Source of the DNA: Reclinomonas americana ATCC 50394
Lineage: Eukaryota
Assembly (NCBI GenBank): GCA_048213135.1
Contig: PS015016.1
Coordinates: 142,340 to 191,462, forward strand
DNA length: 49,123 bases
Direction: 5' to 3'
Part shown: one piece after another, positions 1 to 48,900 of the stretch
Position numbering within the stretch: the first letter of the stretch is position 1
How the letters are laid out: each line of letters starts with the position of its first letter
Translations under genes and position numbers: made by a program
The notes under the pieces: model-generated
What the model was told of the DNA's origin: nothing
The model's database searches: none
What the model saw: the letters and a program-made list of their open reading frames with translations, nothing else

Positions 1-3000
1 CCTCGAAGCGCTCAATCGGCTGCTGGATGACAATCGGGAACTGTTCATTCCCGACACGCAGGAGATTGTCCGTCCGCATCCCCAGTTCATGCTGTTTGCC
101 ACCCAAAACCCACCAGGCTTGTACGGTGGTCGAAAGGTGTGTGGCCTGTGGAGCTTCGTTCGTTTGTGCATGTGTGGTGCTGATATTCTTGAGGCACGCA
201 CCGCAGACTCTGTCACGAGCCTTCCGCAATCGCTTCCTGGAGATCCACGTGGATGACATCCCAACAGATGAGCTGGAGACCATCTTGCATCAGCGCTGCC
301 TCATTCCCATGTCGTACGCCAAGAAGCTCGTGGAGGTGCGTCGTGACACGAGTAGGAGGGAGATCAGGAGCACCGTGAGGTAACATGCGGTTGTAACGTG
401 CGCAGGTGATGAAGGAGTTGCAGAAGCGTCGCCAGGGCAGTCAGGTGTTTGCCGGACGGCATGGTTACATCACTCCGCGTGACCTGTTCCGCTGGGCCGA
501 ACGTCGCTCTGCGTCCTACGATGCATTGGCACGCGAGGGCTACTGCATTCTGGCGGAACGGCTGCGTAAGGACGACGAGAAGGAGACTGTGAAAGTGTGT
601 GACTGATTGTGTGTGTGACCGATGATGTAGTCTGAGCTCACCGACTCTTGTTGCCTCGTGCAGATGGTCATTGAGCAAGTGCTGCGCGTCAAGCTTGATG
701 TCGACAAGATGTATTCGTGCGAAGACAACACCATGTTTGATGTGCTGGAGGAGAAGCTTCGATTGCATCCCAGTGGCGGTGCGTGCATCTGTCACCAGCA
801 CACTTGTGCTTGAAGATCGGTGAGACTGAAGAAAACTTGTGTGCACTGCAGGTCTTCGCGGAATCGTGTGGACCAAGTCGATGAAGCGTCTCTTTTCGCT
901 GGTCGGCACTTGCTTGAAACATAAGGTGTGTTCTCCGTGGTCTCTGCTTGCTTCACGCTGCAGCCGTGTATTGACATGACCGCTGCAGGAACCCGTACTG
1001 CTGGTTGGCGAAACCGGGTGCGGCAAGACCACTGTGTGCCAGCTGTACTCGATCCTGTTGGACCAGCCGCTGCACATTGTCAACTGTCACATGCACACGG
1101 AGACTGCCGATTTCCTCGGCGGGCTACGACCGGTGCGGCGGAGGGCGGCGATTGGAGCGGAACTTACCAGTGCCATTCGCTACTGTGTCGATCGGTGTGT
1201 TTGCGAGTAACCACTGAGTTTCGCTCCTTGCTTGCTTGCTCACGGTTACTGACTTCTCAGCAATGCCGCCGTGTTTGCCGACTGCGGAGTGAACTTGCCT
1301 CTTATCCACGACTCGCCTTCTGTGGACGCCACGCTGGAGGAGTTTGAGCGTTGCATGGCCAGCATCACGGAGGACATGGTGAGTGGTGTGATGTTGTAGG
1401 ACATGTTAGCACTCCTCACTGACGTACATGCAGCTGGTGTCGATTCCTGCACTGCGAACGCAGCTGGAGCACGTTCGGCGAGAGGCTGCACGCTACAAGG
1501 CTCTCTTCGCGTGGTACGATGGTCCCCTGGTGCAGGCCATGGTTCGCGGTGACATGTTGTTGGTCGACGAGATTTCCCTGGCCGAGGATGCTGTGCTGGA
1601 GCGCTTGAACAGTGTTCTCGATCCGAACCGCACAGTGCTTCTGTCGGAGAAGGGTGGCGCGGCGTTGTCAGAGGTACAGGCGCACTCGGACTTCCGCATA
1701 CTGGCCACCATGAACCCCGGCGGCGACTTTGGCAAGAAGGAGCTGTCGCCGGCGTTGCGCAGTCGCTTCACCGAAATCTACGTGCCGGCGTTTTCATTCC
1801 AGGAGGACTTTGCCGTCATCATTGCTGCTCGCCTATGCGATGTCGAGTTGGCACTCCTCGCACCGTGCATGGTGGCGTTTTTCGAGTGGTGCTGGAGTGA
1901 CGCTGCGCGTAATCACATTGTGTTGAGCATGCGTGACGCGGCTTCGTGGGTGGACTTTGCCAATCATGCGTTTGTGCGACTCGGCGCCACAAGACGAGAG
2001 TGCTTCCTACACGGCGCATTCGTTACGGTCTTGGACGGCATTGGTACGAGCAGCACCATGTCACGAACAACGATTCTGGCCACCCGCCGGCGCGCAGTGG
2101 CGCACCTGCTCGCCGTCTCGCAGTCGATCCCGCTCGGTGAGTCATTGCTTCCACCACCACCACCACCTCCTCTTCCTCCTAGAAGCAACATCTCATGCAT
2201 CAGCATACCACAGACGTTGATGGTCGTGATGCGTATTTGACGCAAGTCGACACGGAAGACGCCTTCTTGTCGCAGGTGTTGAGCAGCGACGGTACTCTGC
2301 GATCGGCTGTCACCGAGCGCACCACCTTTGGAGTGCAGCCATTCACACTGCCTCTCGGCCCGCACTCGGTGCCTGCTTCGTTGCACTACACGTTGGCGGC
2401 ACCCACCACCTCGGTGAATGTATTCCGCATTCTGCGCGCCCTGCAACTGCGCAAACCAGTGCTGCTGGAGGGAAGCCCAGGCGTGGGCAAGACAAGTCTT
2501 GTGCAAGCAATCGCTAATGCCTCGGGGCACCGTGTGGTTCGCATCAACTTGAGCGAGCAGACCGACGTGATGGATTTGCTGGGCTCTGATCTGCCAGCGG
2601 AGAGTTGAGTCCATTGCCGCAGCAGTAGCATTCGAATCCCTCGCCGACTGACATTGTTTGCCCAGGTGGACGTGGTGGCGATTTTGCGTGGTGCGATGGT
2701 GTGTTCCTGCGGGCACTGAAGAACGGCGACTGGATTCTGCTGGACGAATTGAACTTGGCGCCGCAGCCGGTGTTGGAGGGCCTCAATGCTGTGCTCGACC
2801 ATCGTGGAGAGGTGTTTATTCCGGAACTCAACCAGCGCTTCACTTGCCCGCCGTCGCTGCGCATTTTTGCGTGTCAGAACCCACTGCAGGTGCGCGTGCT
2901 TGCGTTTTGTGGATGGTAGTCATTCTCTGACTGATTTTCTGTCCATTGCAGGAGGGCGGCGGTCGCAAGGGCCTCCCCAAGTCATTCCTCAACCGTTTCA

Positions 3001-11633: not shown

Positions 11634-12632
11634 ATGCCGGTGAGCAGGGCAATACCCACCAAGCGCCACTCATGAGCACTGGCGGGTCTCACCCTTTGTT
11701 TGTCATCACACAGCTCTTTGCGCTCTACATCAAAGCCGATCTCGAGAATGTCGAGGAGTGCGTGCGCGTTTTTTTGTCTATGCGGTGAGTGCCGCACTTA
11801 TGCTCAAGTTCGCCTGCGCGCAGGTTGACTGCCGAGCCCAACATGACTTTCGGATTCACGATGGCATGCGGTGCATGTGGTGCTGGTTGCGTCACACACA
11901 CGCACACACACGCACTCTGTCGCCTTGCGCATTGCGGCGATCTGATGAGTGTTTTTTGCGGCACAGTGACGGAGAAGCCAGTGTATGTCACTGCTGGCGA
12001 GGAGGTGAAGCTGGAGGGTTCCCGCGGCACCGCCAATCTGGTTGTCAAGTGCAAGATGTGCGAGCGCTCAGGCAACGTGAACATCCAGAAGGACGCCTTT
12101 ACACCGTACGCCGATACCAAGTTGCGTACACGTGGCAAGCACGCATGTAGAAGAGAACAAGGGAGGTGCACTGCTTATTTTTTCCGCTCACCGCCCACAC
12201 CGTACAGTGCATCCGAGTTTGGACGCATTGTGGCCATGGAGGTAACCGTGTGTGGGGGTGAAGCTGCTCTGACTGGTAACTCACTCTTGTGAACACGCAT
12301 ACGACCCCCCCACTTCTTGCAGTTCCGCGGCTACGGTTGAGTTGTCTTTCGCTTTCCCGCGCTTGCCTGCGGTCTCCGTTCTGACCATGATACGCGTGCT
12401 GCAGCTCCCGAAGAGTTTCTGCCGGCCAACGGGTGGCATGGTATGCTTGCTCGATAGCGAGGGGTGCACGTGTGTCGTCGATCGCTCACCTCTGGCTGAC
12501 ACAGTGAAGACGCCATCTGGCAAGGAGTTCAGCGACGTGGATCTGTCGGAGAGGGACTGGTCCGAGTTCGACGACGAGCTCAGCGAGCCTGTTGGCATCT
12601 ACGGCTTCGAGAGCAAGTGGGAACGGGAGTGA
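11634..12632 (+). CDS. CZIB: CXXC-motif zinc-binding protein (DUF866/UPF0587, C1orf123-like), 8 exons
   Basis: Spliced product MPLFALYIKADLENV..FTMACGACG..EGSRGTANLVVKCKMCER..MEFRGY..SGKEFSDVDLSERDWSEFDDELSEPVGIY; two CxxC motifs. Confidence 0.92.
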
Positions 12633-12808: not shown

Positions 12809-14403
12809 TCACCACGATGCTGGTGGCGGCAACGGCGCATTCTCGTCGTTGTTATTATTGGATGAACGTGGCGCGGGCGTCACTGTCGCAGTGGGGCCGA
12901 GAGGCACCACGTAAGCAGAGGCGTACTTTGCAGCCAGGCTCTCGCTAAGGCCACTGTCAGTAGAGACCATGGACGATGTCGATAGAGGCACGGCTGGCTC
13001 GGCCAATTCGGTCGCTCCCAACAGTCGATGCGTAGTTGAACTGCTGCGCATCTGGCGATACACACTCCCTCTGGAGGCAAAGGAGGACCCGGCTGCATCC
13101 GTGTAGCCCCCATCACCGCTCTCGGCACGTGCACAGCAGGCCCAACAGCGGAACATGATCGGCAGGTAGGCGCTGATGAAGAAGACATACAGAGCGGCGG
13201 CGGCCGGCGCCAGTCGAATGCAGATGCGAATGCAGATCTGCACACGTGACTCACGGGTGAGCGCAGGTGACGGAGCGCAGTATGCGTGTGGCACGCACCA
13301 CTAGGAACACGCCCCAGCCAATGTTTTCCAGATCGGCGCAACGATTTCCATGATTGACGAATTCGATATGCGTGTACACGTCGTACACCAACTGCGGAAG
13401 AAGCACTTGAGCGGGGAGACGCAAGCAAGCAGTGCTGCGAGACTTGCCTTGACGAGGGCACAAAAAGCGTCGAAGATGATGAGAAAGAGCAGCTGCCGTC
13501 GTTTGGACTGGCGTGACTTGCGCGCAACATCACTCGATCCGCCCACATCGCGACCGCGAAGCTGGCTGCGCTTGCCCGCGTGAATAGCAGAGTACGGGGG
13601 GGTGCCACACTGCACGGACACGTACCACACAATGTAGATCGAGGCCAGCAAGAAGATGCCGGCAATGGCCAAGGCACTCGCCGAGCTGAGCATCCACGAC
13701 AAGTCTGCGGTGGGGAGAGAGAGAGAGACCCGTCAGCGGTAACAGCAACAAGATCACAGCGCACAATGTCGCCGCCACTTGCCAGCGCAAGTGATCGTCT
13801 TGTCAATGGCATTGATGCACGAATACAGCAACACCGCAGTCGAGTAGATGATGACAATCGTGATCGCCACCACAGTCACTCTGCGCGTCCGAGTGAGCAT
13901 CCTCGCAGCGCGAGGTGAACAAAAAATAAACGACGAAACGGCCACAAGGTCTTGGCACCGGCCACTCGGATCGACAGACGCACAAAGAAGAACGCGAGGC
14001 AGGTGTAGAGCAAAACTTGGACTGCAGATGATGCGACGATGGTCAGATTGATTGATACAAGTAGACAAACCAAGCGCGAACGTGCGACTCTTGCACACAC
14101 AACTGTAATCGACGACAAAGTAGACCATGGCCGTCCGCAAGAGCAGGTTCTTGGAGAACAGCAGGAGACTCTGCAACGCCACCAGCGTGAACAGAACTAG
14201 ACGGAAGCCGCCAATCCGCTTCTTCCGCTCGAACAACAGCAACCACAGCGCAGTCAGCGCCAGTGCAAAGACACTGAAGGACAACCAGCCGACCACATTG
14301 GCACTGTGAAGACGACGGAGAGTGAGAAGACAACGCAACAAATCTAGACGCATCTCTGGTCTGCGAAGGCGAACCGAATGCAGTCGCTGGCCTCGCACTT
14401 CAT
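12809..14403 (-). CDS. Orphan seven-transmembrane (GPCR-like) protein, 8 exons
   Basis: Splicing gives MKCEASDCIRANVVGWLSF.. with seven hydrophobic segments and a Ser-rich tail; needs two GC-AG introns (donors 13782, 13447). Confidence 0.7.
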
Positions 14404-14601: not shown

Positions 14602-16485
14602 ATGAGCGACTTGTTCCAGTACGTGTGGAGTCTGGCTCCGGCCCAACTCGACCGTCTGTTTCAGAGTCCAGCTGTCGTGCAAGCACTCTTTCGGTACATT
14701 GTCTCTCTCTCTCTCACACACACTCTCTCTCTCTCTTCTTCTGCGGAAGCATTCATTCATGCATCACTGTCGCGCAGCGCTTTCCATCCACTCTCCAAAC
14801 TCTACATCTCACGACTGGCATTTGTCGACTTTGCATCGTCGTCATCATCATCATTGTTGTCGTCGCCATCTTCCATTCGCTTCTCCGAGATCGCCATGCT
14901 GGCCATGGACTCGGAGGAGGCCATGGCTGGTGATGCACGGATGGTTCTGTCCTCGTCGTCTTCCTCTTCATCGGGTGCTGCTGCAGCGGCGGCGGCGGCG
15001 GCAGCTGCGGCTGCATCGGCTGCTTCGGTCGACGAAGCTGTGTTGACGGCTGGCGAGGAGCTCATTCGGTGTCACGTGTTGCTGGTGGATGAGCAGGCGA
15101 CTGCTGCTGCCTCGGCGGCGGCTGCGGCTGCGGTGGCGGCCGTCACTGGCGTGATGGAGGTGGATGGTGTGGAGGAGGGTCCAAAGTTGCGCGCACGCGT
15201 GATTGCCTCTTTTTGTGTCCTCGTTGACACCCGCCCACTCGTTGTGTGTGCGTGTGCAGAACAAAACGCGCGCGCATGAGCGATCTGCGTCGATCAATGG
15301 TGCGGCTGCATCCTGCATTCCAAGAGAGCTACAGGTCGATCTTGTTGCATGGGTTGCCCGATCTGTACTCGGCCACCGACTTGGGTGTCGACCGGAATCA
15401 GCCGTCCATTGCCGACCTCGATGCATACGCGCAGAGCCAGTGGGAAGGTCAGTCAGTGCTGTGCGCTTCTCGCTGCTGGCCAGCCCGTCGCTGACCCCGT
15501 GCGGCAGACATGCTGCACTGGATGGTGAATCCGCATGATCAGACGCAGATCGACGACAGCATTCGCACGCTACTGAACCATGCCAAGCTGCTGCGGTTTG
15601 TGTCTCTGCAGATGTCGCGGTGACTGTGTGCGCTCACTGTTGTCGACAGAGGTCGAAATCTCACCAACCTCGGCTTCCAGTTCCTGCTCAAGGACACCCA
15701 CTCGCAAGTGTGGGACCTGTTGCACGAGTACATTGATTCGTCTGAGGTACCACATACTCTCTTCCATTCTCCTTGCTTGTGGAGTGCACCCACATGTTTT
15801 CGTCGCCGCAGTCGCGTGGCATGGACCGCGAAGAGCTCTTGCAGTTCCTGTTTGAGTTGAGCCACATGCGACTGGGTCAGGTGCGTCCTCTGTTTTTCAT
15901 NNNNNNNNNNNNNNNNNNNNNNNNNNNNNNNNNNNNNNNNNNNNNNNNNNNNNNNNNNNNNNNNNNNNNNNNNNNNNNNNNNNNNNNNNNNNNNNNNNNN
16001 NNNNNNNNNNNNNNNNNNNNNNNNNNNNNNNNNNNNNNNNNNNNNNNNNNNNNNNNNNNNNNNNNNNNNNNNNNNNNNNNNNNNNNNNNNNNNNNNNNNN
16101 NNNNNNNNNNNNNNNNNNNNNNNNNNNNNNNNNNNNNNNNNNNNNNNNNNNNNNNNNNNNNNNNNNNNNNNNNNNNNNNNNNNNNNNNNNNNNNNNNNNN
16201 NNNNNNNNNNNNNNNNNNNNNNNNNNNNNNNNNNNNNNNNNNNNNNNNNNNNNNNNNNNNNNNNNTTTTGCGCCCGTACGTTGCTCACATGTGTGTGTGT
16301 GCGTGCATGCAGTCGAGGCGTTTGCACGCGAGCGCAACTACTGCATGTGGTCCAACTTTGACACCATGATGTTGGTGGTTTCCGAGGAAGGCCATCTCAT
16401 TGTGAAGGACTTTACGAGTCGACTCAAGGATCAGCAGGACCGACGGGAGGCCAGCGGTTCTGCGTACGGAGCCTCGTGGACATGA
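14602..16485 (+). CDS. GTF2H4: TFIIH subunit p52/Tfb2; middle lost in gap
   Basis: MSDLFQYV..LDRLFQSPAVVQALFRAFHPLSKLYI; LDAYAQSQWEDMLHWMV; LTNLGFQFLLKDTHSQVW; ELLQFLFELS; C-terminal MLVVSEEGHLIVKDF. Confidence 0.9.
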
Positions 16486-29345: not shown

Positions 29346-30118
29346 TCATGGCTTGACTCTGCATCGCAAAATCTTGACCTCGTCCACTGGCCGATCCTGC
29401 GCGTCTGTGGTCACCAAACCCTGCAGCAACAACAACAACAGCGAATGCACGAGTGTGAGTGAGTCTCCTCTTAGTGCTGCAGAAGACACTCCAACGCAGA
29501 GACCAATCGTTGCACATTGCTCATGCCAGAGCTCACGCGTCCAAAGATCGTGTGCTTGCCGTCCAACCACGGAGTCGGTGCCTGCTCGCCCACCCGTCAC
29601 TCACAGAGAACACACAGTGCACGAGACAGCGAGAGAGAGACAGACCAGTGTGATAAAGAACTGCGATCCGTTTGTGTTGGCGCCGGCGTTGGCCATGCTG
29701 AGAATGCCTGCGCCTGTGTGCTTCAACGTGGGCGTGGTCTCGTCCTCAAAGTGCGCGCCATAGATGCTCTCGCCTCCGCGCCCTGTGCCAGTGGGGTCGC
29801 CGCCTTGTGCGATAAAGTCTTTGATTACGCGATGAAAGATGGTGTCGTTGTAGTAGCCGCGCTTGGCCAGCTCTGCAAAGTTCTTGCAGGCTTTGGGTGC
29901 CTCCTCGTAGTACAACTCCACCTGCAACGAGAGGAGTGAGGCACACACGCACAAAGGGGGAGAGAGACTGTGTGTGGCTCACCTCAACGGGACCCACAGT
30001 TGTCTCCAGCCTGCGCGTGTGCGTGCGTGAGAGAGAGAGAGATGCATCATTGGTGAAGCGTGAGAGAGAGAGAGAGACGCAACACGACGTGTGTGTAGCC
30101 GCAGTACTCGTCTGTCAT
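29346..30118 (-). CDS. PPIL1: Cyclophilin-type peptidyl-prolyl isomerase PPIL1-like, 5 exons
   Basis: [93 protein letters not shown]. Confidence 0.92.
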
Positions 30119-33400: not shown

Positions 33401-36400
33401 GCAGGTCAACAACAACACGTACGCACTGCTGTCCCGCGGTTCTCCGTCAACTGGAAACGGGCGCTGCATCAACATGTTGCGTCTGCATTGCACCTGGTGT
33501 GTGACCCGGTGGTGCTCACCTACGCTTCTTTGCCGACTACAGGGCCATTCAGTACGGCTCTTTGCAATGCAATATCATGTTGCGTCCTCGGTGGTGTTGT
33601 GAGTTGTTGGCCGCGTGCGTACGTGCTCATTATGCTTTGCTGGTGATGCAGCAATACGACTGTGAGCTGCCAGGTGTATGACTGCCAGAACAAGTGGACG
33701 CATGTTGCATGTACGTCATGGGTTGTCGCACAGATCTCATTCCCTACCTCATTGTGCCTTTATTCATTTGCATGTCATTAGTGGTGGCCGACGGCAGTCA
33801 CATCACGTTGTACAAGGACGGCTCCGCGGAGACCGCTCTCCCGAGCAGCAACGTGATGTTCGAGAGTGCAGTGGATTCGTGGTGGTTCGGCTGCATGGAG
33901 TTTGGTCGACAAGGCTTCAACGGCAACATGGCGGAGGTGTGTTCGTGATGTGATGCAAGCGTGTTCCGTCGGTGAAATTGTCACTCATCATGCGCTTTCT
34001 CCCACTGGCCGCAGCTGCGCATCTGGAAGTGTGCGCGGTGAGTGCTGCTGCTCGGCATATTTCAAGTCTGCGCATTTCTCGTCCACGTGCTGACACTGCT
34101 CTTTCTGTGACCGACCTCGCAGGTCGGCGTCGGAGATTGCCGAGTATCGCAACGTGTCGATGACGGGGCGTGAGAGTGGCCTCGTCGGCTACTACCGCAT
34201 GATTGAGGGTGCTGGTGACACACTGTGGAACTCGGCTGCCACCACTGGACATGCGACCTTTACGGGCTCCAGCTGGTGCGTTGAGCGGCCGCACGCGTGT
34301 GCGAGAGTCGCCTTGGAAATTTGACATACGTACGCTCTCACTCAGGTCGAATCATGAGTCGCCAGTCAAGCCCGACAAGGAGAGCCTGGCCGGTACGCTT
34401 GTGGACAGCGAGTCGTGCATGCCCACTGTGTGCGAGATGTCCCAATTGACCTCTTCCGTGTGCGTAGCCGTCGAGCTGCCGTGCTCGCTTGACGAGGACG
34501 TTCTCAAGCGTGCCCAGCTGGTCAGCAACGGCGACTCACTCGGTGTGTTGCTGCGCGAGAATCGCCAGCAACATTCGCAACACCCGCGTCAAGCAGGCCT
34601 GTTTGGGGGACCTGCACCGGCTGGTGGCGTGCACTATGTCGCTCGCTTCGAGGTCTACAGCCTGGAGACCGGAATGCTGGTGGCGGGCGAGGATGTGCCG
34701 GATGCGTGTGCCAGTTGAGAGAGTGTCGACTTTTGATCTCGGTGTTTCATTCGCACATGTGCATGGCTCACGCGTTCCTTTTCTTGCAGTTACCGACGTT
34801 TGCTACGATCGCGTGAACAACGTCCTCTGGGCGCCATCGTCTGCGGTTCGTTTCACCGGTGAACACAACGCTCACTGTGTGCGCACTTGTTCTGCTCACT
34901 GTTGTCCCCCACAGCAACCACGCACCATGTACCGTTTCCGCATGCCAGGCCGCGGCTCTCGTTGCGTGAACACTAACGAGAGCGAATTCATGTCGTCGAC
35001 CTCACTGCGCTTGTCTTTCTTTCGTTTGTTTGTTTGTGTCGCCCGACGTTTGCAGCATTGTACGCCGATTCCAACGCGGGTGCCAAGGCGTTTATCGATT
35101 CGGGTGCCGATCTGCTGCTGCTGCAGCCGGAGTGTGCGCTGACCGCAGAGCACGACGTATCTGGTGTCGACTCAACGACTGCGCTTCTCCGTCTCGTTGC
35201 GGTGTTGGACTCTGCAGGTGATTGCGGGCAGTCATATCTCTCTCTCTGTCTGTCTGTCTTTGCGCCTGACTCCGCGCAACGCAGCCGCAAGTGAGGTCGA
35301 TGACGAGCCGAATCCGACGCTGAGTGTGCCCGGTGTGCTTGACGTGTCGGTCGAGACCATTAGCACGCTGTGTGACATGGTCGAGCGCCTGTCCGACGTG
35401 TACCTGCAGCCGACTGCAGCCGTCGATGCTTTGCGACACCAAACCATTGTGTTCACCCTTCTGTACGCAATCCGCTGTGTCCGCACGCACATTTCGTATG
35501 TGATCAAGTGGAATCTGGATCCGGCCGTAGAATGTGACCTTGGTCCGGCTTCTGGTGCGTTTGTACACACACACACTCACACACTGAATCTGTCCACCTG
35601 CTAAGATATATACACGCTGTCACGCAGACATGACTCGCCGCCTCAAGTCGGCATTGCATCGTGTGCTGGTGACAGTGCCCACCGATGCCATTTCACGACT
35701 GGCAGCGTCGTCGCTGCAGATGGCCGCGTGTGAGGTTTGTGCTGGAAGGAATGCTGGCATGTTTTCTCTGTCTTGTCTGACACCTACGCTGGCAGATGTT
35801 GACCGGGGGCTTCCAAATCTTCTATCCGACACCAGTGATGCAGCGCGAGTTGCTGCAGCTGCTGTTCCGCGAGTGCGGCACTGCTGACGTGAGTTTTTTC
35901 TTCTCTTTCTATGTGTGTGTATGTATTCCCCGTAGCGCTTACCACATGAGTCTCTTTGCTCAGGCTACTGCGGCGGCGGCGGCCGAGGAAGAGTCGGAGA
36001 GCCCCCAGTTTACGTTCCTGCAGCATGCGCTGACCAAACTGGGCGAAACCAACTCGACCTTCCAGTTCCTCACGCAGGAGGATGACGATGCTGACAGCGA
36101 GTACTCTGTCATTCGTTGCGTGCGCCAGAGTTACTGGTGGTCAACTCGTGCCAACCCGCTGACATGAATGGTAGGCACTCTGCGCTTGTTGGTGGAGATT
36201 GCGTGTGACAACGACATGCGTCTCCTCGCCACTCGCGTGAGCGGTTCCGAGGATGCAATGCCGAGCTCAGTGTTCCGCGCCCTGCACGGCTTCCTGGTCT
36301 CCGTGCAAAAGGCTATCCTAAGTGAGGTGGGTATCTCACGCACTACGCGCTGCACACTTCACCTCCTCTTCATTGATCTCATGCTTTTGGTCTACGCAGG

Positions 36401-37712
36401 GATTCTCTCGTCGTTCGCCGGCAAGCAGCTCCACCGCGACACCTGCCTCGTCGGAGAGTCTCAACGTGATGCTCACGTACGTGCTCATTGTGTGGGAGGC
36501 TGCCGATCGACTCTTCCGCCGATGCATCTCGCTGGTGGCCGACGACACACGCGCTGCGGCACTGGTAATTGCCTACCTCTTTGTGCAAATGATCGACTGC
36601 TCACGTACCTGTCTGTGCATGCTGCTGGCATGGCAGGCTGGCAAGCTGGTGATGCAGAGCACCATCGGATCGCTGCTGCCGTCCTTGTGGACTACAATCG
36701 GTTGCATGTCGGTGGATCTGCCGACCAGCGGCCGTCTTCTGACTCCGCTGTTGAATGGACTGAGCACACTGTCGTCACTGGCGCAACACTTGCCCGAAGC
36801 ACAAGATACGGAGCGCCTGCTATGTGGCACGTATGCGCCGGAGCCAGTGGTTGTGGAGACCGACCACCCGTTGCGTCTCCCGTGTGTCTGCACTGTGTAT
36901 GTCTGCATCTCAATCCTGAAAATCTTCTTCGTATGTGCCTGCAGTGTCGAGCTGACTGAAGATCGCACAACATTCCGCGTGGCCGTCCCGTATGCAAACT
37001 CCCTCACAGTGGCGATTGCACCGGAAACAGAAGTGCCGGCGGGGTTCGTTTGTTTGTCGCTCTGGAACGCAACGCGAACTCTTAACCTCCTTCTCCCTAC
37101 AGATGTGTCCTTCGCGTGTATGGTGAGAACGACCAGCGTGGCGTCAAAATTTCGAACACGAGTTGGGTGGCGCCGTATTCGTCGAGTCGCTCTCTGGCCG
37201 AGGTCAAGCCGCTGTCGTTCTGGTCTTGCAATGTCGTGTACTTCATTCTGGAGAAGCGGTCCAAGACCGCTGGCCAGCCCGTCAAGCCCAGCTGGGGCTT
37301 CAAGTTGTGTTTGCTTGCACGAGGCGCCTCGTCCCTGTTGTACTGATCCGTCACGCCACACAGAGCGACTGTCACGACGACTGCCGTTGCACGCAATGCC
37401 GACACGGGACCACTTGTCGATCTGTGTCGCACTGTGGGACTTGTCGCTGGCAGGGTGCGCTGCTGTTTTTTTGTCGTCGCTCACACGGCTTCGAGACCCA
37501 GCGCTTGCGCTCATGATCTGTGTCACTGCAGTGCTGTGGCCGGCTGATGCGGTCGGAGAAATTGACAGACGACGAAAGCGCTTGCATTGAGTGGCTCAGC
37601 TCTGAAATCTTCTCCGAAGGTCTCGACGCTCACGGGCAGGTGTGTGCATTGTGATGACACGCGTGCATGCGTGTGTCGTGTGACTCTCANNNNNNNNNNN
37701 NNNNNNNNNACG

Positions 37713-37807
<95 letters not shown>

Positions 37808-40800
37808 GTTGGTTGCTAATGTTGCCGCTGCTGAAACGATGATCAGATGCGACTGCTGTCGCATTCCTCGAGGATATTGTCGAGTTGCGCGGTGACGCTG
37901 CACTGCTGATGGTGCGGTTGGAGACGGTGCAATCTGTGCCGCTGCTCGGACCGCAGAGTGCGGCCGCCGCTGCCAGTTGCGTTCACTGTCTCTGCACGAA
38001 AATCACTCTCGGCATCCGGGTGCTGAAACATACATACTACTGCGTGCATGATGAAACAGTCACGCGCAGCGTGCGAGCGGTGTTTGCCGCTCTGTTGCAC
38101 CACAATGGAATCACCTCGGATGCCATGTCCACTGCGCTTGGTGGCGCCGGTGCCGCCATTTCCGAGAGCCTCTCGCGCTGCTGGAAGACAGCCATCAAGG
38201 TAGATTGCAAAGTGCGCTGCCGCAGATCTGCCTGTGTACTCATCTTACAACTTTCCCACGCAGCTTTCCAAGTGGCTCATGCAGCGGTACCAGCAGGAAC
38301 GCAGCAAGCTTGCCGATGAAGATGAGGGCTCGGGTATTTCGTTGCGTCAGAGCGTCGATGATGGATATTCATGCACTCCTCGTCTCTGTTGTTTTTTGAA
38401 TTCCTCCTCGTGCTCGCTACGACTCGCAGCAACCTGTACGACTCGATCTGCAAAAAGGTCGTGAAGCGTGCTCGCTTTTTCATTGAGCTGCTGCCGTTCA
38501 TGAACGTTGCGTATGCGATGCACTCTGTTTTGTGAGCCTTCACACTGTGACTGACGTCATGCGAGCAGATTGTGACGGAGACTCCGGGTACGCCAAATCC
38601 CGCCAATCGTCGTGAACTGACGGAGAGTCAGCGACGCGCGAGAAGTGTAGCCATGGCCTGGAAGAACTTGCGCCGATCTGGCCTCGCGTCCGGCGAAGAT
38701 CGCTTCAGCCACGTGTGGCGCCTGCTGATCCACTTTGTCGGTGCCCCGGTATCCATCAAGAAACTGCGAGTCGCCATTATTGCACGCCAGCGCCGTGCGC
38801 GACTGCGTGCCGCCGGACTCAAAGCCATGAGTGACATGTTCCAGGCCGCGAAACTGGTCAGCATTCGGCAGGAGATTTTGCGCGCACTCGTTCCTGCTCT
38901 GCAGGAGGCGAGCCAGCCGCTCTCTGCTGCACCGACAGTCGTCAACAACCTCGAGGTCTTTTTTCTTTCATTTTGCGCGCGTGTGCGTATCTCACCGATG
39001 CCCTGACAAGCGACTTGTGACAGGGTTGTGGCCACGAGTGCCTGCTGTCGGTGAAGATGGCGTTCATGAAGCTGTACTCGGAGCTGGTCCGTGCATTGCA
39101 CGACCCAGTCAGTGCGGGCGAGGGTCTCATCACCAGCATCCTGCACGCATTCAACGTGGACTACAAGGGCGAGAACGACATTTTGGTGCAGCTCGAAGTG
39201 TTTACGGCTGTGCGCGAGATGCTGTCTGGAGTTTCGTTTGCGTGTCTGTGGGTCTTATTCAGGGCATTCGCCCGATCCTCACCAATGCCGTATGCTCCTC
39301 TCCACAGCCGCAAGCAGTCATCGGTTCCGCTCAGCGTGCCACTTGGATGCTGTTCGAGTTGGTGATGTCGAACGCCCTGCGTACTTCGTCGTCGACCGAG
39401 TCGGTCAGTGAGGTGCGGCAGATCGACGTGGAGCCCATCTTTGAGTTGCTGGTGGACCAAGTCACCAAGATTGGCCACGACATTGACAACCGTGTCTCGG
39501 ACGATGCCGACGGTGCGTGTCAGTTTGCGGGTGCTTCTGTATACTCCGTTCTCACCCTTGTTTACACTTTCGTGTGGGCTGCAGACGGCACGATTTCATC
39601 CACTCCCAAGCACGTGATTGTCAGCAATGCATTCGACACGGCTGTCGTACAGGCACAGGCGGTGCAACAGCAACAACTGCAACAGCAACAGCTGATGTTG
39701 CAGCAGCAGCAGCACATGCAGATGCAGCGTGAGGAGGAGCCGCAGCCAGAGGTGCGACGCAGCAGACGTGGCCGTCGATCGCGTGGCGGCGCCGCTGCTA
39801 CCGAGTCTTCTGGTGACGGCAGTGGCACCAGTGCAACCGTGCTCTCCACCTCTGGGACCGGCTTTGGTAGCTTGACAGCTGCAGCAAGTGCCTTGTCGCG
39901 TCATGCGTCGCACACGGAGATTCTTGCACTCCTGCTCTCGGCGTGTCGCTGGCAGCGAGCCAAGGAGCTCCTGTTCAGCGGTGATGTGATCTCCAGTCTG
40001 CTACGCATCTTCCGGTACGTCACCGCGGTTATTCTGGTGTGTTGTTGCGCCATGCTCACCCCCCGTTTCGCAGTCACGGCGATCACAAGCTGCAGCTGCT
40101 GGCGCTACGGATTCTGCGCAAAGTGCTGCCTGTGCATCCGCGACTCGAAGAGGTCAAGCGCCTTCCCTCTCATTTTTCTACTCAGTGCATTGTGCTTACT
40201 TCTACATGCCATCTCTGCAGGTGGACGCCGCTGCCACCTCACAATTCCCGTCGCAATGCACAACCGTGTCGTCGGTGCCGGGCTCGGCCTTTGTCTCTTT
40301 GATTCTGTACACGTGCGGCGTGTCCGTGTGCCTGCCGGTGGCTTGTTGCGTCTGTTGCCGGTATCTCGCGTGTTTTTTTCGTGCATAGTGACCCGCTCCT
40401 GTGTTTGTGCGAATCGAGCAGATGGCGAAGAGGGTGCCTTCCTGCGCACGGCACTGGACGTGCAGAGTCCCGCTGAGACACCATCTGCGGAAGCTTCAAG
40501 TGCTCCATCTGCAGCAATCTACGGTGTGCTTGTCGGTGAATGCGTCTCGCTGGTCCGGCTGCTCTTCCAGAGCGCATCATGGGTACGGTCGTGCAGAAAC
40601 TATGCATGCAGGTGGTCTCCGTTTTTTGACACTGTCTGTGTGTACGTGTGCATCTGCAGAAATCGGCCCTGCTTGCTGTGGTGTCGATGGCGTTCACTTC
40701 GCTGTCTGAGTTTGCTGCTGCAGCGGATCACGAGTGGCGCGCGTCAGAGTGGTCGGTGGACAAATGGCGCCGTTACATTCTGCTGCTGGCCTCTGTCGCA

Positions 40801-42934
40801 GTTTGCGGTCCGTGTGTCGTCCGTGTGTGTGTGCGTTGTGCATGTTTCAACTTAACGCTTTGCTTCGTATTGGATGGCAGGTGGACATATCGAGGCTCCT
40901 CGTGTCGGTGCCAGGCTGTTCCACAAAGACAAGTCGCAGTTCTCGACCATGTTGTCGGTGTCGAATGCGTTCAGCTTTAGTGTCGTTGTCGACCGTTCCT
41001 CAACTCCGACGTCGCTGAGCTGCAAGGGATTGCTGGTTGTGCCAGAGGTGGGTGTGACCGTGTTTTCGTTGCAGTGGATTGCGTACTGAGGAGACAATAA
41101 TGCAGGTGCAACCGCCAGTGGAGACGTTTGAGCAATTGTTCCACGTCGAACAGTTGGATGCGCTGTTCCACTACACGGAGGCGGTGCAGACAACTGGCGA
41201 AGGGCTTCGTGCAGAGCGCGATCGCATCGGCTCATCCAAGCTGCTGAACTGCCTGTTGCGAACGTCGACCCTCCGCATGTTGTCGGTGTTGGTCAGCCAG
41301 GAATCGTTTGTCGAGTCACTGGCGTCCAGCGGCCGTCTGTCGAGTCTCCTGGCGTTGTCGTTTGAGACTGCCCGCGCCGAGCGACCAATCAAGGAGATCG
41401 AGGATCTGACCACTGGCGCAATGACCTGGCTCCTCCGATCGGGCGTCTCGCAAGCGAACTCGGAAGTCAGGGTCGCGTTTGACGGTACGGAATCGTCGCC
41501 CCTCGACACTGATATTGTCCATACATTTGTTTGTTTTTGTGCTTCGCTCATGCAGCATCTGCACATGCACAGGCACGGTGCAGCTGAACGTGCTCAATGG
41601 TTTCGATCAGTGGGATGGCTTTGTCTCCGACACCAATCTCGGTCGTACTGCGAGCTTCCCGCCCACTCCCGTGCGCTACTTGCATTTCGAGTCGCCGCTG
41701 CCGTCTACCGCCGAGGTCAACGGCAAGGTGGTGATGTTGTACGCTGCGCGCGATTTCGAAGAGCGAGTTGCGTTCCCACGGCGACGAGAGTTTCCTGCTG
41801 CTGCTGCTGCTTTTATTTTTGCAAGCTGATGGTGATTGCTGCTCTTGGCGGTGCTGCAGATTCAAACGCTGCAGAAGAAGTTCACGCCAGTGTGCATTCT
41901 GGTCCAGGCAATGTCCGACGCCAATGTGCCTGCCAGCTTGACTGCTTTCAAGCAGGCATCGCGTGGCTGCCCGGTGCTGCGAGTAACACGTGACTTTACC
42001 AATCGCCTGATTGACGAGCTCGGTATCGAGAATCCGCTGACCGTGTTTGCCTCCGCTCTGGCCGACAACATGTCGAAGGATGTTGCGTGTGGCGTGTTTT
42101 TGAGATTGGCGCCTCACGTTCACTTTAACAACTCGTGCACGGCCATGCAGTATCCTCGCGAGTATGCCATGAAGGCACTGGAGAAGTGCGGTTACGATAC
42201 GACGCAAGCGGGTGAGTTGGGCGTGCTCTCTCGGGCAGTCGCCACACGTGATGTCTAATACGGTCGTGTAGAGAACTGGCTCAAGTACAACTACGAGATG
42301 TTGCTGGAGGAGGAGGAGCTCAACAAGGTGATGGCGCAAGAAAAGGATCGCGTACGCAAGCGCGACACGGAGACGACAACGGTGGCCAAGAAGGAGGCCT
42401 TCGACTTGTGCAAGATTCTGCGCAGCAACGTCACGTTCCTGGACGGAGGTTTGTGTGTTATCGCGACAAGGAGAAACACAGCCCCGCGCGCTCACTGTTG
42501 CGTCAGTGGTTACCGGCGAGTCGCTGGCGGATATCTTTGGTTCCCCCACCACTGAGTTCCCTGGTATTGTCAAGTACCACTTTGCGCACCTCAAGTCCAA
42601 GAGCTTTGGTCAAAATGCGTTTGCCCAACCCGGAGGCTTTGGTCAGCAGCCTGGCGGCTTTGGCCAGCCGGGAGGCTTTGGTCAGCAGCCTGGCGGATTT
42701 GGACAACCGGCCGGCTTTGGCCAGCCTGGATTGTTTGGTCAACCGGCAGGCTTTGGCCAGCCTGCACTGTTCGGGCAGCCAGCATTCGGACAACCTGCTG
42801 GCTTTGGCGGTGGAATGCTGGACGGACAACAACAACAACAACAATTGACGGTCAACTCTGTCACCCATGACTGTGCGTTGGTTCTTTCCCCCACATGCGA
42901 TACCCTTGCTGCTCGGTCTCACTGCGTCTCGATT

Positions 42935-42978
<44 letters not shown>

Positions 42979-45900
42979 TAGTGCTCTCGTCGCTGTCGAG
43001 TTTGCATGTGCAGTACGCGCGCCACGCGGTTATCTCGATGGTTGCCCGCTGGCCACTGCCTGTGCCGTTCTCCAGTCTCGGCGATACCGCCACCGTGTCC
43101 AAGATCGTTCGTCTCACGCACGTGTGCTCGGATGTGGTGCACAAGGTGCCGCTGGTGAGCGAGCCCACTCTGGCGCAGGATCGACTCGCCAGTATCCTCT
43201 CGCACGAGGTCGCCGCCAACGAGTTGCGCCTCTGTGCTCTATCCTCAGTCGCTCTGATTTGTGTGTGTCCTGTCCTCACTATGCATCTTGCAGGAGCTGG
43301 CTGCGCGGCATCATGGTTACCGATGTCTTGCAGGCTCTGGACATTGATCCGAATGCAAATACTCGCTCGGTGATGTTTGAGAGCGAGCATCCGGTACGTC
43401 TCCGCACACTTGCGTGTATTACGGAGCTCCTGTTTCACGTTTCTCTTGGTTGCTGCAGGTCATTCCGCAACAGCGACCGCCGATGCGCGTGTCGTTGCCC
43501 GGCGCGCCCTCTCTCGTTATTCGAATGGATCCCGCCATGGACTTCTCAGCAAACGAGTTCCTGTGCTTCTTCCGTCGTGAAACGTGCCAGCCGCAAGATC
43601 AGCTGGGGCGAGTGGGTAGTGGACAACCCATTCCGCCGAGTATCACGTTGCCTGTCGACACGTGCTGGTGAGAGCGTGCGCGTGTGTGTGCGTGCGTGCA
43701 TTTATTTCCTGCTATTGAGAAAGTTCATCGTTTGGTGTTTGCGTGCATTCTCAGGGTCGTCTACCAGGCCGAGATGTGGGGCCGCCAGAGCTGGGGATTC
43801 CGTTTTACCGCAGTCGCTGGAGACAGCGATTCGGATGCCGATTCGCCTCTGGAGCTGACGACGGCGCTTGGTGTGAAGACGATGCAGCTGCTCCTCAAAT
43901 CGCCCAACCTGCACTTGCCGCTGTCGGTGAGAGTCCCGTTCCGCGATTCGTCGCGCTAGCCTCGCTGCATCTCACATTGTGTGTACGCAATAGCTGCTGG
44001 AGAAGCTGTTGGAGACGCTGCCGCGGTCAGACAGTGTGGTGGCAGCGCGGTGGATGCGTGTGGCCATTCAGATGTTCAATCGGTGGAGCGAGTTCGACCA
44101 CGAGTCGTTGACATCGCGAGCGCACAAGGAGCGCATCCTGGAGGTGAGCTGCTGCACACCCACAGCTGCATTGTCGGCTGTCTCCACTTGGTGTCGCTGA
44201 ATCGTGAGTGCAGCTTCTGGAGACCATTCCCAAGAATCTCGTGGAGGAGGTGCAAGGCGAGGGCTCAGTGAGCATCATGATGCCGAACGAGGACAGCATC
44301 ACATGCCGTGGCGTCGAACCCATTGTGGTCGCGTCAGCCATGGAGACAGTGCTGGTAAGTTTGCGAGTGAGAGCGAGACCACGGAGATGTTTCGTCACGT
44401 GCTCACGTTCTGTAGATTGGAATGCGCACTGTTCGACTGGACGAGTCGGGTGTGGGACGTGATATTCCGGTGCCAGACTTTTTGTCGGCCAAGCGCGGCG
44501 ACTTTGTGGTGTTGGACGATCCGTTTGATGAAGCCAACGGACCGGGCCGCCCTGTTCCTGGTGGCTTTGGTGCCCAGCCGGCGTTTGGTGGTGGTTTCGG
44601 CGGCGGTGGCGGCGGCTTTGGTGCGTCCTCATTCTCGTTCGGCTCGACAGCTCCCGCATATGGCTTTGGTGCCGCTGCAGGTGGCTTTGGTGGCTTTGGA
44701 GGCGCGTCGAGCTTTGGTGGTGCTGTCAGCAGCTCGAGCGCCAGTGGATCGTCTCGTCGACCCACCGTGGAAGATGAAGATGACGATGTTCCGCTTCCCG
44801 AGGACGACGACGACGCGCCCTTCTTTGGCCCGGAACTGCCAACTGCCGCCGATTCCGCGCAGTCGCCCACCGGGGGTGCGGGTGCTGCGGCCGCCGGCGC
44901 CTCTGCCAGTGGTTCCAGCGGAAGCGGCGCTGCAGATGCAGCAAAGACCACAATGTCGAGCTTCACGCCCGAGCAACTGAAAAGTGCGTGCACGTGTGGG
45001 GTGGGTGAATAGCGTGTGACAAGCGAGTCATGCTAACATTATGTGCGCTTTGTGCAGTCCTGGCGGATCATCGCAAGGGCAAGGCTCTCAGCGCACTCGT
45101 TACGCTCTGGCCGTCGCAAAAGCGCGCACAGTTCACCAAGGACAACAAGGTACGATTGGCGAACACGTTGCATGCGTGCATCATATGTGTTCTTAACCAA
45201 CCCTGTGTGCGTTTTTTGCAGTTCTGGTTGATGAACACGTACGAGAACACCCTGGCTATCACCGACACAGTTGTCAGTTGCGCCACCACTCCTGCACCGA
45301 TTTGTTCCCTTGCGTGTGTGGTGTGTGCACTCACTGCGCTTTTTCTCGACAGATGGTGGCAAGTGGTACTTTGAGTGCGAGGTCAAGCTCGGCCAAAACA
45401 CCAACGTCTTCATCGGCGTTGTCCGCTCCAATTTCACGTTTGTGGTGCGTTCGTTGATCATGTGCGATGCAGTGACGGTATTTCGAGTCTTGCGAGCCGT
45501 CCTCACTCTCTGTCTGCTTGACAGAATGGCGTGCAACTGGGCTGCGACAACGCCGGCGCCTCCTGGGCCATGGCGATTCCGACCAACCAGCTGCGCCACG
45601 GCAATGTGCTCACCAGCAGCTTTGCCTACGATTGGTCTGTGTTGTTGGTTGCTTGCTTTGGGGTTTCAGTGCCCGACGCATTTTTNNNNNNNNNNNNNNN
45701 NNNNNNNNNNNNNNNNNNNNNNNNNNNNNNNNNNNNNNNNNNNNNNNNNNNNNNNNNNNNNNNNNNNNNNNNNNNNNNNNNNNNNNNNNNNNNNNNNNNN
45801 NNNNNNNNNNNNNNNNNNNNNNNNNNNNNNNNNNNNNNNNNNNNNNNNNNNNNNNNNNNNNNNNNNNNNNNNNNNNNNNNNNNNNNNNNNNNNNNNNNNN

Positions 45901-48900
45901 NNNNNNNNNNNNNNNNNNNNNNNNNNNNNNNNNNNNNNNNNNNNNNNNNNNNNNNNNNNNNNNNNNNNNNNNNNNNNNNNNNNNNNNNNNNNNNNNNNNN
46001 NNNNNNNNNNNNNNNNNNNNNNNNNNNNNNNNNNNNNNNNNNNNNNNNNNNNNNNNNNNNNNNNNNNNNNNNNNNNNNNNNNNNNNNNNNNNNNNNNNNN
46101 NNNNNNNNNNNNNNNNNNNNNNNNNNNNNNNNNNNNNNNNNNNNNNNNNNNNNNNNNNNNNNNNNNNNNNNNNNNNNNNNNNNNNNNNNNNNNNNNNNNN
46201 NNNNNNNNNNNNNNNNNNNNNNNNNNNNNNNNNNNNNNNNNNNNNNNNNNNNNNNNNNNNNNNNNNNNNNNNNNNNNNNNNNNNNNNNNNNNNNNNNNNN
46301 NNNNNNNNNNNNNNNNNNNNNNNNNNNNNNNNNNNNNNNNNNNNNNNNNNNNNNNNNNNNNNNNNNNNNNNNNNNNNNNNNNNNNNNNNNNNNNNNNNNN
46401 NNNNNNNNNNNNNNNNNNNNNNNNNNNNNNNNNNNNNNNNNNNNNNNNNNNNNNNNNNNNNNNNNNNNNNNNNNNNNNNNNNNNNNNNNNNNNNNNNNNN
46501 NNNNNNNNNNNNNNNNNNNNNNNNACGGTAAACGGTCATGCATGTGCATTACCTCTCTCACACACAGTGGCGTGCTGCAGAGGTGCGAACTTGGGTCGAC
46601 GATGTCATGTCGTGCTACGAGACTCTGTTGGCGGCACAAAGCGGCGAGGCGATTTCCGAGGCGTTTATGGACCGCTGTCTCGAGGGCGAAGGCTTGCCGA
46701 CCGGTGCGTGCGTGTGTGCGATGTCTGTGAGACCAGACGCGTGGCAGACTGTCGTTGACTGATGATGGTCGCAGAGACCACGCTCGCCTTGGAGGTTTTG
46801 TCGTGCGATGTGCCGACACGTCCGGGCGACAACATGAGTCTGTCGACCCTCACGGAGAACGATGGTGTGGCGTACACATTCCGCAAGGGTCGCAATGTGC
46901 ACGTCTCGTTCCGCATGGACGAGGACCAGGACTTTTTGCTGACCAAGATTCGAGTGTCACCCGGGTATGTTGCTAGCTGCTCAGCATGCGTTTTTGTTTT
47001 TTGTTCACTCGGACTTACCGCTGATTGGCACAGAGCGTTCGGCTCCAACCTGAGTGGCATGGTGTTTGTCACGGACGGTTTGTGTCGAATGTTGTTGTCA
47101 TTTGTCGTGCTCACCAACTGAATGCGCTTTCTTTATTCCGCTGCAGAGAAACCGCAATTCGACTCGCTGAGCTGGTGCGATGACTACGAGGAGGAGCGTT
47201 TCAAGAGTGCGTGGTGCTCTCTCTTGTTGGTCAAGTAGAGCCTTGCACGCCGTGTGCTCATCTGCGGTACAGAGTTCGCCGAGCGTAAGCGCGGCCTTGG
47301 CCAGGAGTGGCGCCCTCACGAACCGGTGGCGTACTTTATGTGCAATTCTGGGGCTGCGCCGACCACCAATGTGGCCGAGGTGCGACGCGGTCGCTACGTG
47401 ACTATCAGTTGCGGATGCGATCGCACGAGTTGTGCGAGTCTCAGCATTCTGACGTGCTATCCACACAGAGTTCATCCAGTCGTCGACTCCGCACGAGATC
47501 TCTGTGACGTTTGTGGAATTCACCGGCGTGCCTGGCGTCCATCCGGTGAGCGTGCACTCATTTTTTCGCGCCACTGCACTGCACCATCTGCTCATCGCAT
47601 TGTTTCTTGCAGTTGGCGCATCTGTACGGACAGCCGTCACTGGCCACCGAAGCGGACCGACTGCGTCTTGAGCTGAAACGCAACATGGTGTTCGACACCA
47701 GTTGGACCAGCGAGCATGACCGCGAATTGGTGGAACTGGTTTGTGGAAGAGGCGCGCTCGTGCGGTGGTGGTTAACTTGTGACATGCTCATTGCGTCGAC
47801 AGAGTCAAGTGTGCAGCAAGCGGTGGGGTATCAAGCCGTCGTCGGTCGACGTGTTCATGTTGAAGCCGACTGCCGAGGATCTGATGCGTTTCTACGCGCT
47901 GCGGGTGCGCTCGTTGATGTTTACGTGGTTGTGGGTGTGTTTTTGCATAACGAATGCTGGCGTGCTGTGCGCAGCGAGTCACCAAAGTGGAGACACTTCG
48001 TGCACGCCTCGCCATCATCAAGATGCTGAATCGCGCCGTCGTTCCGCTGCTGCGCTATTGCACGCTGTTGCCCGATGCGGTGACGGAAGAGGGATCGCTC
48101 AGCGCTCGCATCTTTGAGGTCAAGGAGGCGCTGTACTTGCACAACAAGACGGCGTTCTGGAATGCCGTGCTGTCGCAGACCACGGAACGCAACGGTGGTG
48201 GTGGCCTGTTCGCTTCGCGCGTGTCCATCAATCGTGTGAAGGCCACGCTGGCTCGCACTGGTTGGTGGTGTGCCAGTGCGTGCCGTGCAAACTGTCTCAT
48301 TTGCTGATCGCGCGTGCAATACAGAGCCTGCCAAGGATCCGGATGGCGCCAAGTCTATCTTTGGACAGTTGTACGCCTCTGTGCACCTGATGGCCCCGCG
48401 CCAGCTGCGACGCAATCACCAGTTGTGGAATGTGGAGTTTGTCGGGTGCGGTGTTTGGTCCTCTCACTTCTTCTCCATGTATTCGACTGTTCCTCACCCC
48501 TTCTATTCCACGCTCGCAGCGAGGGCTCCATCGATGCTGGGTTCGTTGTTTTTCTCACTCTTGTGCTGTTGCTGCAAGCTTTGCTTGATTCTCATGGCTG
48601 TTGCGTATTGCCTGACACGTTACTCAGTGGACCTTACCGTGAGGTATGTCATCACGTGCAAGTGTTACCGGGACGGGGGCTAATAATTGACTTGTCGTTT
48701 CGCAGTCGATTACGCTGGCTTGTGCCGATCTCATGTCGTCGGCCACCCCGCTGTTTATCAAATCGCCCAACGGTCGTCACGGGCTCGGCATCAACCGGTG
48801 AGTCGCGTGGAGAGGGAGAAGAGAGGAGGAGGAGGAGAAGAAGATGATGATGATGATGACCACGGTCAAGGAGGGCAAGAGAAGGAGGAGTAAGAGGAAG

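Follow-up and report, generated by a model that had tools for sequence, protein, structure and literature searches.

A second class of 5' splice sites with an intron-side motif displaced by one base in a 49-kb stretch of Reclinomonas americana nuclear DNA

Introns in a 49,123-nucleotide stretch of DNA from Reclinomonas americana ATCC 50394 (positions 142,340 to 191,462 of the forward strand of contig PS015016.1, GenBank assembly GCA_048213135.1; called the window here, with its first letter as position 1) begin in two different ways. Beside the ordinary 5' splice site of the window, G|GUNNGU, there is a distinct second class of the form (A)|GUUGCGU, and this class is best described as a 5' splice site of a presumed shifted-register type that has been raised from rarity to a major class. 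A more far-reaching reading, to which we give a probability of roughly 0.35, is that this lineage has two co-equal 5' splice-site registers, both in constitutive use, with at least a quarter of introns being read one base out of register through a U1 small nuclear RNA (snRNA) that has evolved to pair with GCGU or through a second U1.

The original prediction for this stretch, made by restoring reading frames by hand, listed 49 donors of the second class, and the motif given for each was found on the given strand in 49 of 49 cases. Its breakdown is exact: 31 donors are GTTGCGT, seven are GTTGCGC, two each are GTTGAGT, GTTGTGT, GTTTCGT and GTCGCGT, and GTTGCGA, GTTGCGG and GTTGAGA occur once each. 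The same is true of its tally of the last exon base (-1), which is A in 27 donors, C in nine, T in nine and G in four. Every one of the 49 carries G at +6 and some other base at +5; at +3 there is U in 47 donors and C in the other two. The ordinary donors used for comparison (n = 110) follow G|GTNNGT, most often as G|GTGCGT, with G at +5 in 105 and T at +6 in 79; they accept any base at +3 (G 64, T 30, A 10, C 6), and at +4 they most often have C. Examples begin at 27417, 26912, 23787, 25433 and 24168 on the minus strand and at 31794 and 48541 on the plus strand, and the forms with a non-purine at +3 include GTTCGT, GTTTGT, GTTAGT and GTCAGT.

The bias at -1 that had been claimed for the class is borne out by this comparison. 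G precedes the cut in only 4 of the 49 class donors versus 88 of the 110 ordinary ones, where T (17), A (4) and C (1) make up the rest (Fisher p = 2.5e-18), and A precedes it in 27 of 49 versus 4 of 110 (p = 3e-13). When only the homology-verified subset is considered, -1 A is found in 8 of 10 class donors and in 0 of 31 ordinary donors. The class is also not merely the ordinary donor with a T added, because the tail GCG[TC] is present in 40 of its 49 members versus 25 of 110 ordinary donors at the matching positions. Introns of the two kinds are alike in length, with medians of 65.5 nt (class) and 66 nt (ordinary). Three minus-strand donors, at 24009, 22157 and 23885, have the sequences GTTTGCG (twice) and GTTCGCG, in which GCG lies two bases later than in GTGCGT; they keep G at +5, those with GTTTGCG have G at -1 and 23885 has T there, and they were counted as ordinary.

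We consider it almost certain, judging from the sequence analyses that follow, that the claimed donors are genuine GT-AG spliceosomal donors. Introns were placed by homology with a spliced protein-to-genome aligner that allows only GT-AG introns and uses a flat intron penalty and BLOSUM62; the GT-AG rule is built into the aligner and so is not a discovery of the alignment. The genes encoding two ABC half-transporters, A1 (about 28.4-25.2 kb) and A2 (about 25.0-21.75 kb), lie in tandem on the minus strand, and the database proteins returned for them were mostly bacterial ABC proteins, the useful homologue being one of 644 aa (P0069). A1 aligned to P0069 over nearly its full length with GTTGCGT introns at three of the claimed donors, namely 28133 (intron 28074..28133), 27514 (27453..27514) and 26251 (26184..26251). 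The last of these had been predicted to be pinned by the Walker A motif, and the homology-only alignment does place it there, splitting the motif as GKS|T, with no other GT in the same frame within 15 nt. Around the fourth claimed donor of A1 the aligner picks a single intron of 122 nt, and resolution by hand gives two, 26912-26856 (GTTCGT) and 26819-26755 (GTTGCGT), which together restore the SVGD stretch of P0069 and A2 at equal length.

In A2, three claimed donors were placed with P0069 and again with the A1 product as the query: 23279 (GTTGCGA, intron 23214..23279), 22750 (GTTGCGT, 22694..22750) and 21963 (GTTGCGT, 21856..21963). The A1 product placed six of six claimed donors in this gene, adding 24903 (GTTGCGC, 24816..24903), 24407 (GTTGCGT, 24351..24407; no GT in the same frame within 15 nt) and 23635 (GTTGCGC, 23565..23635; no other GT at all within 15 nt). 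Taking both genes, 6 of the 10 ABC claimed donors have no alternative same-frame GT within 15 nt. The 41 ABC introns, placed by homology under the GT-AG rule, give gap-poor protein alignments and measure 57-108 nt, and a branch-site-like motif, YTNAY, lies a short way before the 3' end in 76% of them versus 29% before random AGs. U12-type introns have the donor motif RTATCCTT, and no resemblance to it was seen in any of the 49 donors.

A small C1orf123/DUF866-like gene on the plus strand (11.63-12.63 kb, recognised through PDB entry 5zlq_A) has seven introns, of which two begin with GTTGCGT and one with GTTGAGT. Two of its exons anchor to residues 44-88 and 124-155 of 5zlq_A, and the exon chain that uses the donors 12121 (GTTGCGT, intron 12121..12207) and 12336 (GTTGAGT, 12336..12404, following an exon of 13 nt at 12323-12335) leaves 29 residues between the anchors versus 30 in 5zlq_A. 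The remaining intron of the class (GTTGCGT, 11886..11966) was placed by hand so that a CxxC motif, which we take to be conserved, is kept directly before the match that begins at residue 44; the 20-aa exon before 11886, when searched against the PDB, gave no C1orf123 match. The midasin gene (plus strand, about 1-11.3 kb, with Pfam AAA_5 and MDN1 lid matches) contributes one donor, GTTGAGT at 2604, within an AAA domain: the exons flanking the intron at 2604..2665, the end of which is modelled, match AAA_5 positions 1-45 and 51-124.

The last gene of the window with homology evidence, gene B, is a giant HECT-ligase gene on the plus strand that runs from 30.3 kb to the window end and contains a HECT domain and a weak SPRY-like match. 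A representative search with a 226-aa exon of gene B gave four weak matches, and one relative of 509 aa, P0123, could be used for spliced alignment; P0121, P0122 and P0124 yielded no usable junction evidence against gene B. Alignment to P0123 recovered the predicted donor at 31328 exactly (GTTGCGT, intron 31328..31413), and it placed a second GTTGCGT intron, also exactly, at 32019..32101.

Paralogue comparison was possible for a tandem pair of beta-helix genes on the minus strand (copy A 16525-18511, copy B 19406-21451), in which the copies hardly differ as far as the motifs at 17770/20715, 18019/20961 and 18312/21254, whereas indels or reduced identity set in just after them. In copy A, identity extends to the GTCGCGT at 17764..17770 and an indel follows, a 7-nt indel comes directly after the GTTGCGT at 18013..18019, and the GTTGCGT at 18306..18312 is present in both copies, preceded by A here and by G in copy B. 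Similarity also falls after the GTTGCGC at 17647..17653, where copy B has GTTCCGC. The donors of copy B assigned by the same comparison are GTCGCGT at 20709..20715 and GTTGCGT at 20955..20961 and 21248..21254. The pair is a tandem duplication with 79% identity over about 2.1 kb, introns included, with near-identical exons and the indels in introns.

Counted by kind of support, 16 of the 49 donors are backed by protein homology (10 in the ABC genes, two in gene B, three in the C1orf123-like gene and one in midasin), seven by paralogue comparison and 26 by reading-frame logic only. A signal-trained gene model contains 31 of the 49 claimed donors and is circular for the GTTGCG class. Its errors include one at 48600 and the skipping of the exon 12208-12241, and when retrained it recovers 25 of the 41 verified introns. 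A donor-blind ab initio finder, built from an acceptor matrix, a branch motif and a length prior, found 3-7 of 20-21 known donors exactly and was not used as evidence. By a local junction score, expressed as a percentile relative to 3,583 other sense GT sites, 19 of the 46 claimed donors that were scored exceed the 90th percentile (4.6 expected); it is a weak score, as the verified donors themselves are spread between the 36th and 98th percentiles and the top acceptor is often not the verified one.

Hand-built gene models could also have snapped to a word that is simply common, and the distribution of the word bears on this. GTTGCGT occurs 45 times in the window; 100 shuffles gave 14.4 copies on average and never more than 25. 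Inside gene spans there are 62 sense and 21 antisense copies of GTTGCG, and between 13 and 30 kb, where the genes are on the minus strand, GTTGCGT has 16 minus copies and 0 plus copies. In the ABC stretches, whose structure is defined by homology, 40 of 456 sense GT sites are donors, and of the 12 sense copies of GTTGCG there, nine are donors, two lie in intron interiors and one is exonic (Fisher odds ratio 40, p = 2e-8), with one antisense copy. When a frame-aware model gave every motif an equal score bonus, GTTGCG was taken as a donor at 24 of 62 sense sites and the canonical GTGCGT at 19 of 67, versus 0-13% of sense sites for ten decoy motifs of the same composition.

An artefact of this kind would be in keeping with the copies of GTTGCGT that are not donors and with the failure of the donor-blind finder, which lacks the power to confirm the sites of gene B. 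By hand, the copy at 48600 falls inside an intron of 87 nt whose donor is GTTCGT at 48541, a reading that recovers the HECT stretch EGSIDAGGPYRE by way of a 21-nt and a 16-nt exon; 30691 is exonic (exon 30649-31327), as is 25676, and the copies at 22745 and 22509 lie within introns. Against it stand the sites chosen by homology-only alignment, the excess of sense copies, the odds ratio in the verified ABC genes and the behaviour of the decoys, so that an artefact is already contradicted by the present analysis and we regard it as extremely improbable. An introner-like origin of these introns was considered separately and rejected, the GTTGCG introns being alike, by eye, only in their first 7 bases.

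The original prediction estimated by hand that the class makes up roughly a quarter of introns. This agrees with the homology-defined ABC introns, 10 of which belong to it out of 41, and with the 13 of 48 obtained when the C1orf123-like gene is added. The midasin gene is poor in the class, with one among its first 11 modelled introns.

Roca and Krainer are said to have described, in 2009, a shifted (+1) U1 register at mammalian 5' splice sites, and it was to such a register that the class had been attributed. That U1 pairs with the class sites one nucleotide out of its normal register has, in our estimation, about even odds. In such a helix -1 A would pair with U10 of U1 and +1 G with C9, +2 U would stand opposite C8 as a mismatch, +3 U would pair with A7, and the GCGU tail would occupy the place of the ordinary +3 to +6. 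The cut would stay at GU, with the cleavage site being fixed by the later spliceosome and not by U1. The -1 A bias and the +3 U fit this arrangement, as does a trade-off between -1 A and the heptamer: the exact GTTGCGT is found in 12 of 27 donors with -1 A versus 19 of 22 without it (p = 0.003), and of the sense copies of GTTGCG, those claimed as donors number 20 of 22 after A, 8 of 15 after C, 3 of 7 after G and 9 of 18 after T. To this extent the attribution has indirect support; weak folding with the standard U1 and the scarcity of -1 G, both taken up below, are among the parts of the evidence that do not agree with it, and the relaxed or variant recognition by U1, U6, U1C, Luc7 or Prp8 that had been read into it would be a further conjecture.

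U1 might alternatively pair normally at +1 and +2, with one U (+2 or +3) bulged so that GCGU reaches its usual partners. Such registers are known in humans, with 54-68 sites for the +2/+3 bulge and 36-51 for the +3 bulge among 201,541 (Table 3 of PMC4856993, in the parts available), and they resemble the class in having an extra nucleotide after GU and a downstream G that pairs with C4 of U1 (Roca et al. 2012; PMC4856993, likewise in part). The GTCGCGT donors at 17770 and 20715 read naturally with a bulged C, folding places G-preceded sites in the bulge register, and the -3 C (23 of 49) and -2 A (16 of 49) of the class resemble the usual C-A before the cut. Yet the human bulge registers, as the same sources present them, keep the -1 G and +1 G pairs, and a preference for -1 G would be expected here too, whereas G stands at -1 in 4 of 49 class donors and in 88 of 110 ordinary ones. 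A bulge also gives no role to -1 A, although it is enriched and compensates for imperfect motifs, and leaves the U at +3 without a reason. A shifted helix is favoured over a bulged U because of this +3 U (47 of 49), because of -1 A and because -1 A compensates for an imperfect motif, and we consider the bulge unlikely.

Minimum free energy (MFE) duplex folding with three U1 5' ends points the same way, with the shift preferred over the bulge at 17 versus 2, 38 versus 3 and 40 versus 4 of the 49 sites. The first of the three is the standard end, in the form given in Table 2 of PMC4856993. When U1 has G at position 5 (a Mastigamoeba-type variant), 38 of 49 sites take the shift at a mean of -5.3 kcal/mol, and with a hypothetical U1 having GC at positions 5-6 the figures are 40 of 49 and -7.2 kcal/mol. 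The class relies far more on its exact GCGU tail than the ordinary donors do on theirs. This tail is poorly read by the standard U1, which points to an atypical U1 end, to a second U1 or to a different reader. We predict that the host has a U1 with G/C at positions 5-6 or a second U1 variant. An Rfam scan of the window returned nothing at the gathering score and, at E <= 1, two chance-level matches and no spliceosomal snRNA.

If the reader were a dedicated second U1-like snRNA with a 5' end fully complementary to AGUUGCGU, e.g., with A for C at position 8, each of the two donor classes would have an RNA of its own, instead of both depending on one flexible RNA. The uniformity of the class (31 of 49 donors are one heptamer and 40 of 49 share the GCG[TC] tail) and the very poor binding of the standard U1 end in folding would suit such an RNA. 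There are precedents as well, since U1 5' ends are described as co-evolving with atypical donors in Entamoeba and Mastigamoeba (10.1101/2022.06.08.495308, in the parts available) and expressed variant U1 genes are described in humans (PMC3561869, available in part). On the other side, the Rfam scan found no snRNA gene within the window, the trade-off between -1 A and the motif is equally expected from a single RNA, and two lineages that prefer +4 C have a single standard U1 according to the available parts of 10.1101/2022.06.08.495308. We judge a dedicated RNA of this kind to be rather improbable.

The motif could also be read by something other than U1, i.e., by a protein or by a later U6/U5 contact that recognises UGCGU at +2 to +6 or +3 to +7, leaving a loose donor code. 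The looseness of the ordinary donors at +3, their preference for +4 C, which the standard U1 does not explain, and class energies near zero with the standard U1 would all accord with this. The exon-side trade-off involving -1 A and the strict +3 U look, by contrast, like helix formation, and we think a reader other than U1 quite improbable.

Returning to the shifted register and to the claimed donors, a number of observations weigh against them. With the standard U1 end the class sites fold at a mean of -1.8 kcal/mol versus -6.0 kcal/mol for the ordinary donors, and 17 of the 49 take the shift, 21 take other pairings and 8 do not pair. With the hypothetical U1, -1 G and -1 A give about the same energy (-9.1 versus -9.3 kcal/mol), yet -1 G remains scarce. 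For the two GTCGCGT donors, a paralogous pair, a bulged +3 is a better fit than a shift, and the C at -3 matches neither -3 nor -4 of the ordinary donors. As for the sites themselves, the 26 donors assigned by frame logic comprise 18 that are in the signal-trained model and 8 that are absent from it. The GTTGCGT at 31568..31574 (plus strand, gene B; 67th percentile and not in the model) is ambiguous, competing with a same-frame GT at 31532 that the P0123 alignment prefers, in a stretch that is missing from P0123.

The shifted sites known from mammals are the closest comparison for the class. In humans, the validated noncanonical registers together account for 1.5% of 201,541 5' splice sites (Tan et al. 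2016, PMC4856993, in the parts available). In both the mammalian shifted register and the class the cut is at GU, +3 is a pyrimidine, the tail is moved to +4 to +7, and G stands at +6 and A at -1; a human shifted example in Table 2 of PMC4856993, A|GUC followed by a normal tail, has the same layout. The differences, as far as the available parts of the human work show, are that shifted sites are rare in humans and make up about a quarter of introns here, and that the human tail is AAGU whereas here it is GCGU, which pairs poorly with the standard U1. The register of the window class is surmised from its sequence.

The preference for +4 C seen in the ordinary donors (GTGCGT) has parallels elsewhere. 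Roy and Bowser (10.1101/2022.06.08.495308, in the parts available) report +4 C in Thecamonas trahens, Mamiellales and Mastigamoeba balamuthi, with a standard U1 in Thecamonas and Mamiellales and an ACGUAC variant in Mastigamoeba, and they show that the 5' end of U1 is able to change together with the donors. Those lineages differ from the window in that the same parts of the work give one consensus per species and no second class displaced by one base. The two human donor classes distinguished by their pairing potential with U5 versus U6 (PMC11732430, available in part) similarly show one consensus hiding two classes with exon-side and intron-side differences, but in a single register, whereas the intron-side motif of the window class is displaced by one base. 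The original prediction was not aware of any description at such a scale, and the literature on GTTGCGT, GTTGCG or GUUGCG and on shifted or bulged registers, supplements aside, likewise yielded no lineage-wide class.

The remaining claimed donors of gene B are on the plus strand. Those assigned by frame logic only and contained in the signal-trained model are, with their local junction percentiles, the GTTGCGT sites at 30539..30545 (98.6th), 33325..33331 (97th), 33476..33482 (38th), 33579..33585 (72nd), 36115..36121 (96.7th), 38341..38347 (93.7th), 38506..38512 (93.1st), 40345..40351 (80th) and 41767..41773 (99.1st), together with GTTGAGA at 34714..34720 (98.7th), GTTTCGT at 39231..39237 (97th), GTTGCGC at 43223..43229 (98.7th) and GTTGCGG at 47408..47414 (98.8th). 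Also in the model is GTTGCGC at 45277..45283 (88th), after which the exon gives a weak Pfam SPRY match starting from profile position 1 (E 0.015). GTTGTGT at 37304..37310, in the model as well, had been described as pinned by a WGFK motif. Its junction, SWGFK-ATV, resembles SWGFRFTAV inside exon 43755-43926, an internal repeat that lends the pinning some weak support, whereas the local junction score lies at the 19th percentile. The model lacks the GTTGCGT sites at 34961..34967 (38th), 36870..36876 (50th), 37976..37982 (53rd) and 42082..42088 (74.5th), and it lacks GTTGCGC at 33004..33010, beside an N gap, which is unsupported (12th). At 32387-32430, also on the plus strand, a GTTGCGT outside the claimed set has GCAG 44 nt downstream of it, and the model used this copy as the donor of a 93-nt intron.

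Outside gene B, the claimed donors assigned by frame logic only and contained in the model include GTTGCGC at 15186..15192 on the plus strand (85th percentile), in a TFIIH p52-like gene at about 14.5-15.9 kb that was recognised by Pfam Tfb2, and GTTTCGT at 13933..13939 on the minus strand (100th), in a membrane-protein-like gene. GTTGTGT at 14097..14103 on the minus strand is also in the model. Two minus-strand GTTGCGT sites were assigned by the motif only and are not in the model: 18507..18513 in copy A of the beta-helix pair (42nd percentile), for which copy B, with a microsatellite and a gap, has no equivalent, and 30077..30083, upstream of the aligned part of A1.

The window as a whole is eukaryotic nuclear DNA with a G+C content of about 57%, several runs of N and a very high intron density. 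A1 has about 22 introns in roughly 640 aligned codons, with a mean exon below 100 nt, and the intron positions of A1 and A2 partly differ, the Walker A intron at 26251, for instance, being missing in A2. Micro-exons of 13 nt (12323-12335, C1orf123-like gene) and of 21 and 16 nt (48520-48540 and 48628-48643, HECT domain) are required for conserved protein stretches. Pfam searches found little in the long open reading frames (ORFs) of the window and no match for single gene B exons. The plus-strand midasin model breaks in the piece 3209-4598, which is flanked by gaps of 20 N (3189-3208 and 4599-4618) and has its GTTGCGT copies (3450, 3639) and a modelled coding chain on the minus strand; this contig could be inverted within the scaffold, and searches of its ORFs on both strands against Pfam gave nothing decisive. 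Microsatellites (CACCAC, GATGAT, and runs of GT and GC) are frequent in introns and at N gaps, e.g., at 21856-21963, 24816-24903, 30545-30580 and 37716-37788, and counts of GTGCGT-like words are inflated as a result.

Demonstrations that the register of U1 pairing at 5' splice sites is flexible have to date been confined to a small minority of sites in humans. If the shifted form is a major class genome-wide, natural test cases would be available in the hundreds to thousands, from which it could be learned how the position of cleavage is separated from that of the U1 helix and how U1, U6 and their proteins tolerate this or evolve towards it. For annotation, a gene finder with a single donor matrix would misplace about a quarter of donors and miss exons of 13 to 21 nt, as our own models did here. 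If the two-register reading is true, this would be the first natural system in which the choice of register, beyond the strength of the helix, is a genome-wide variable of splice sites.

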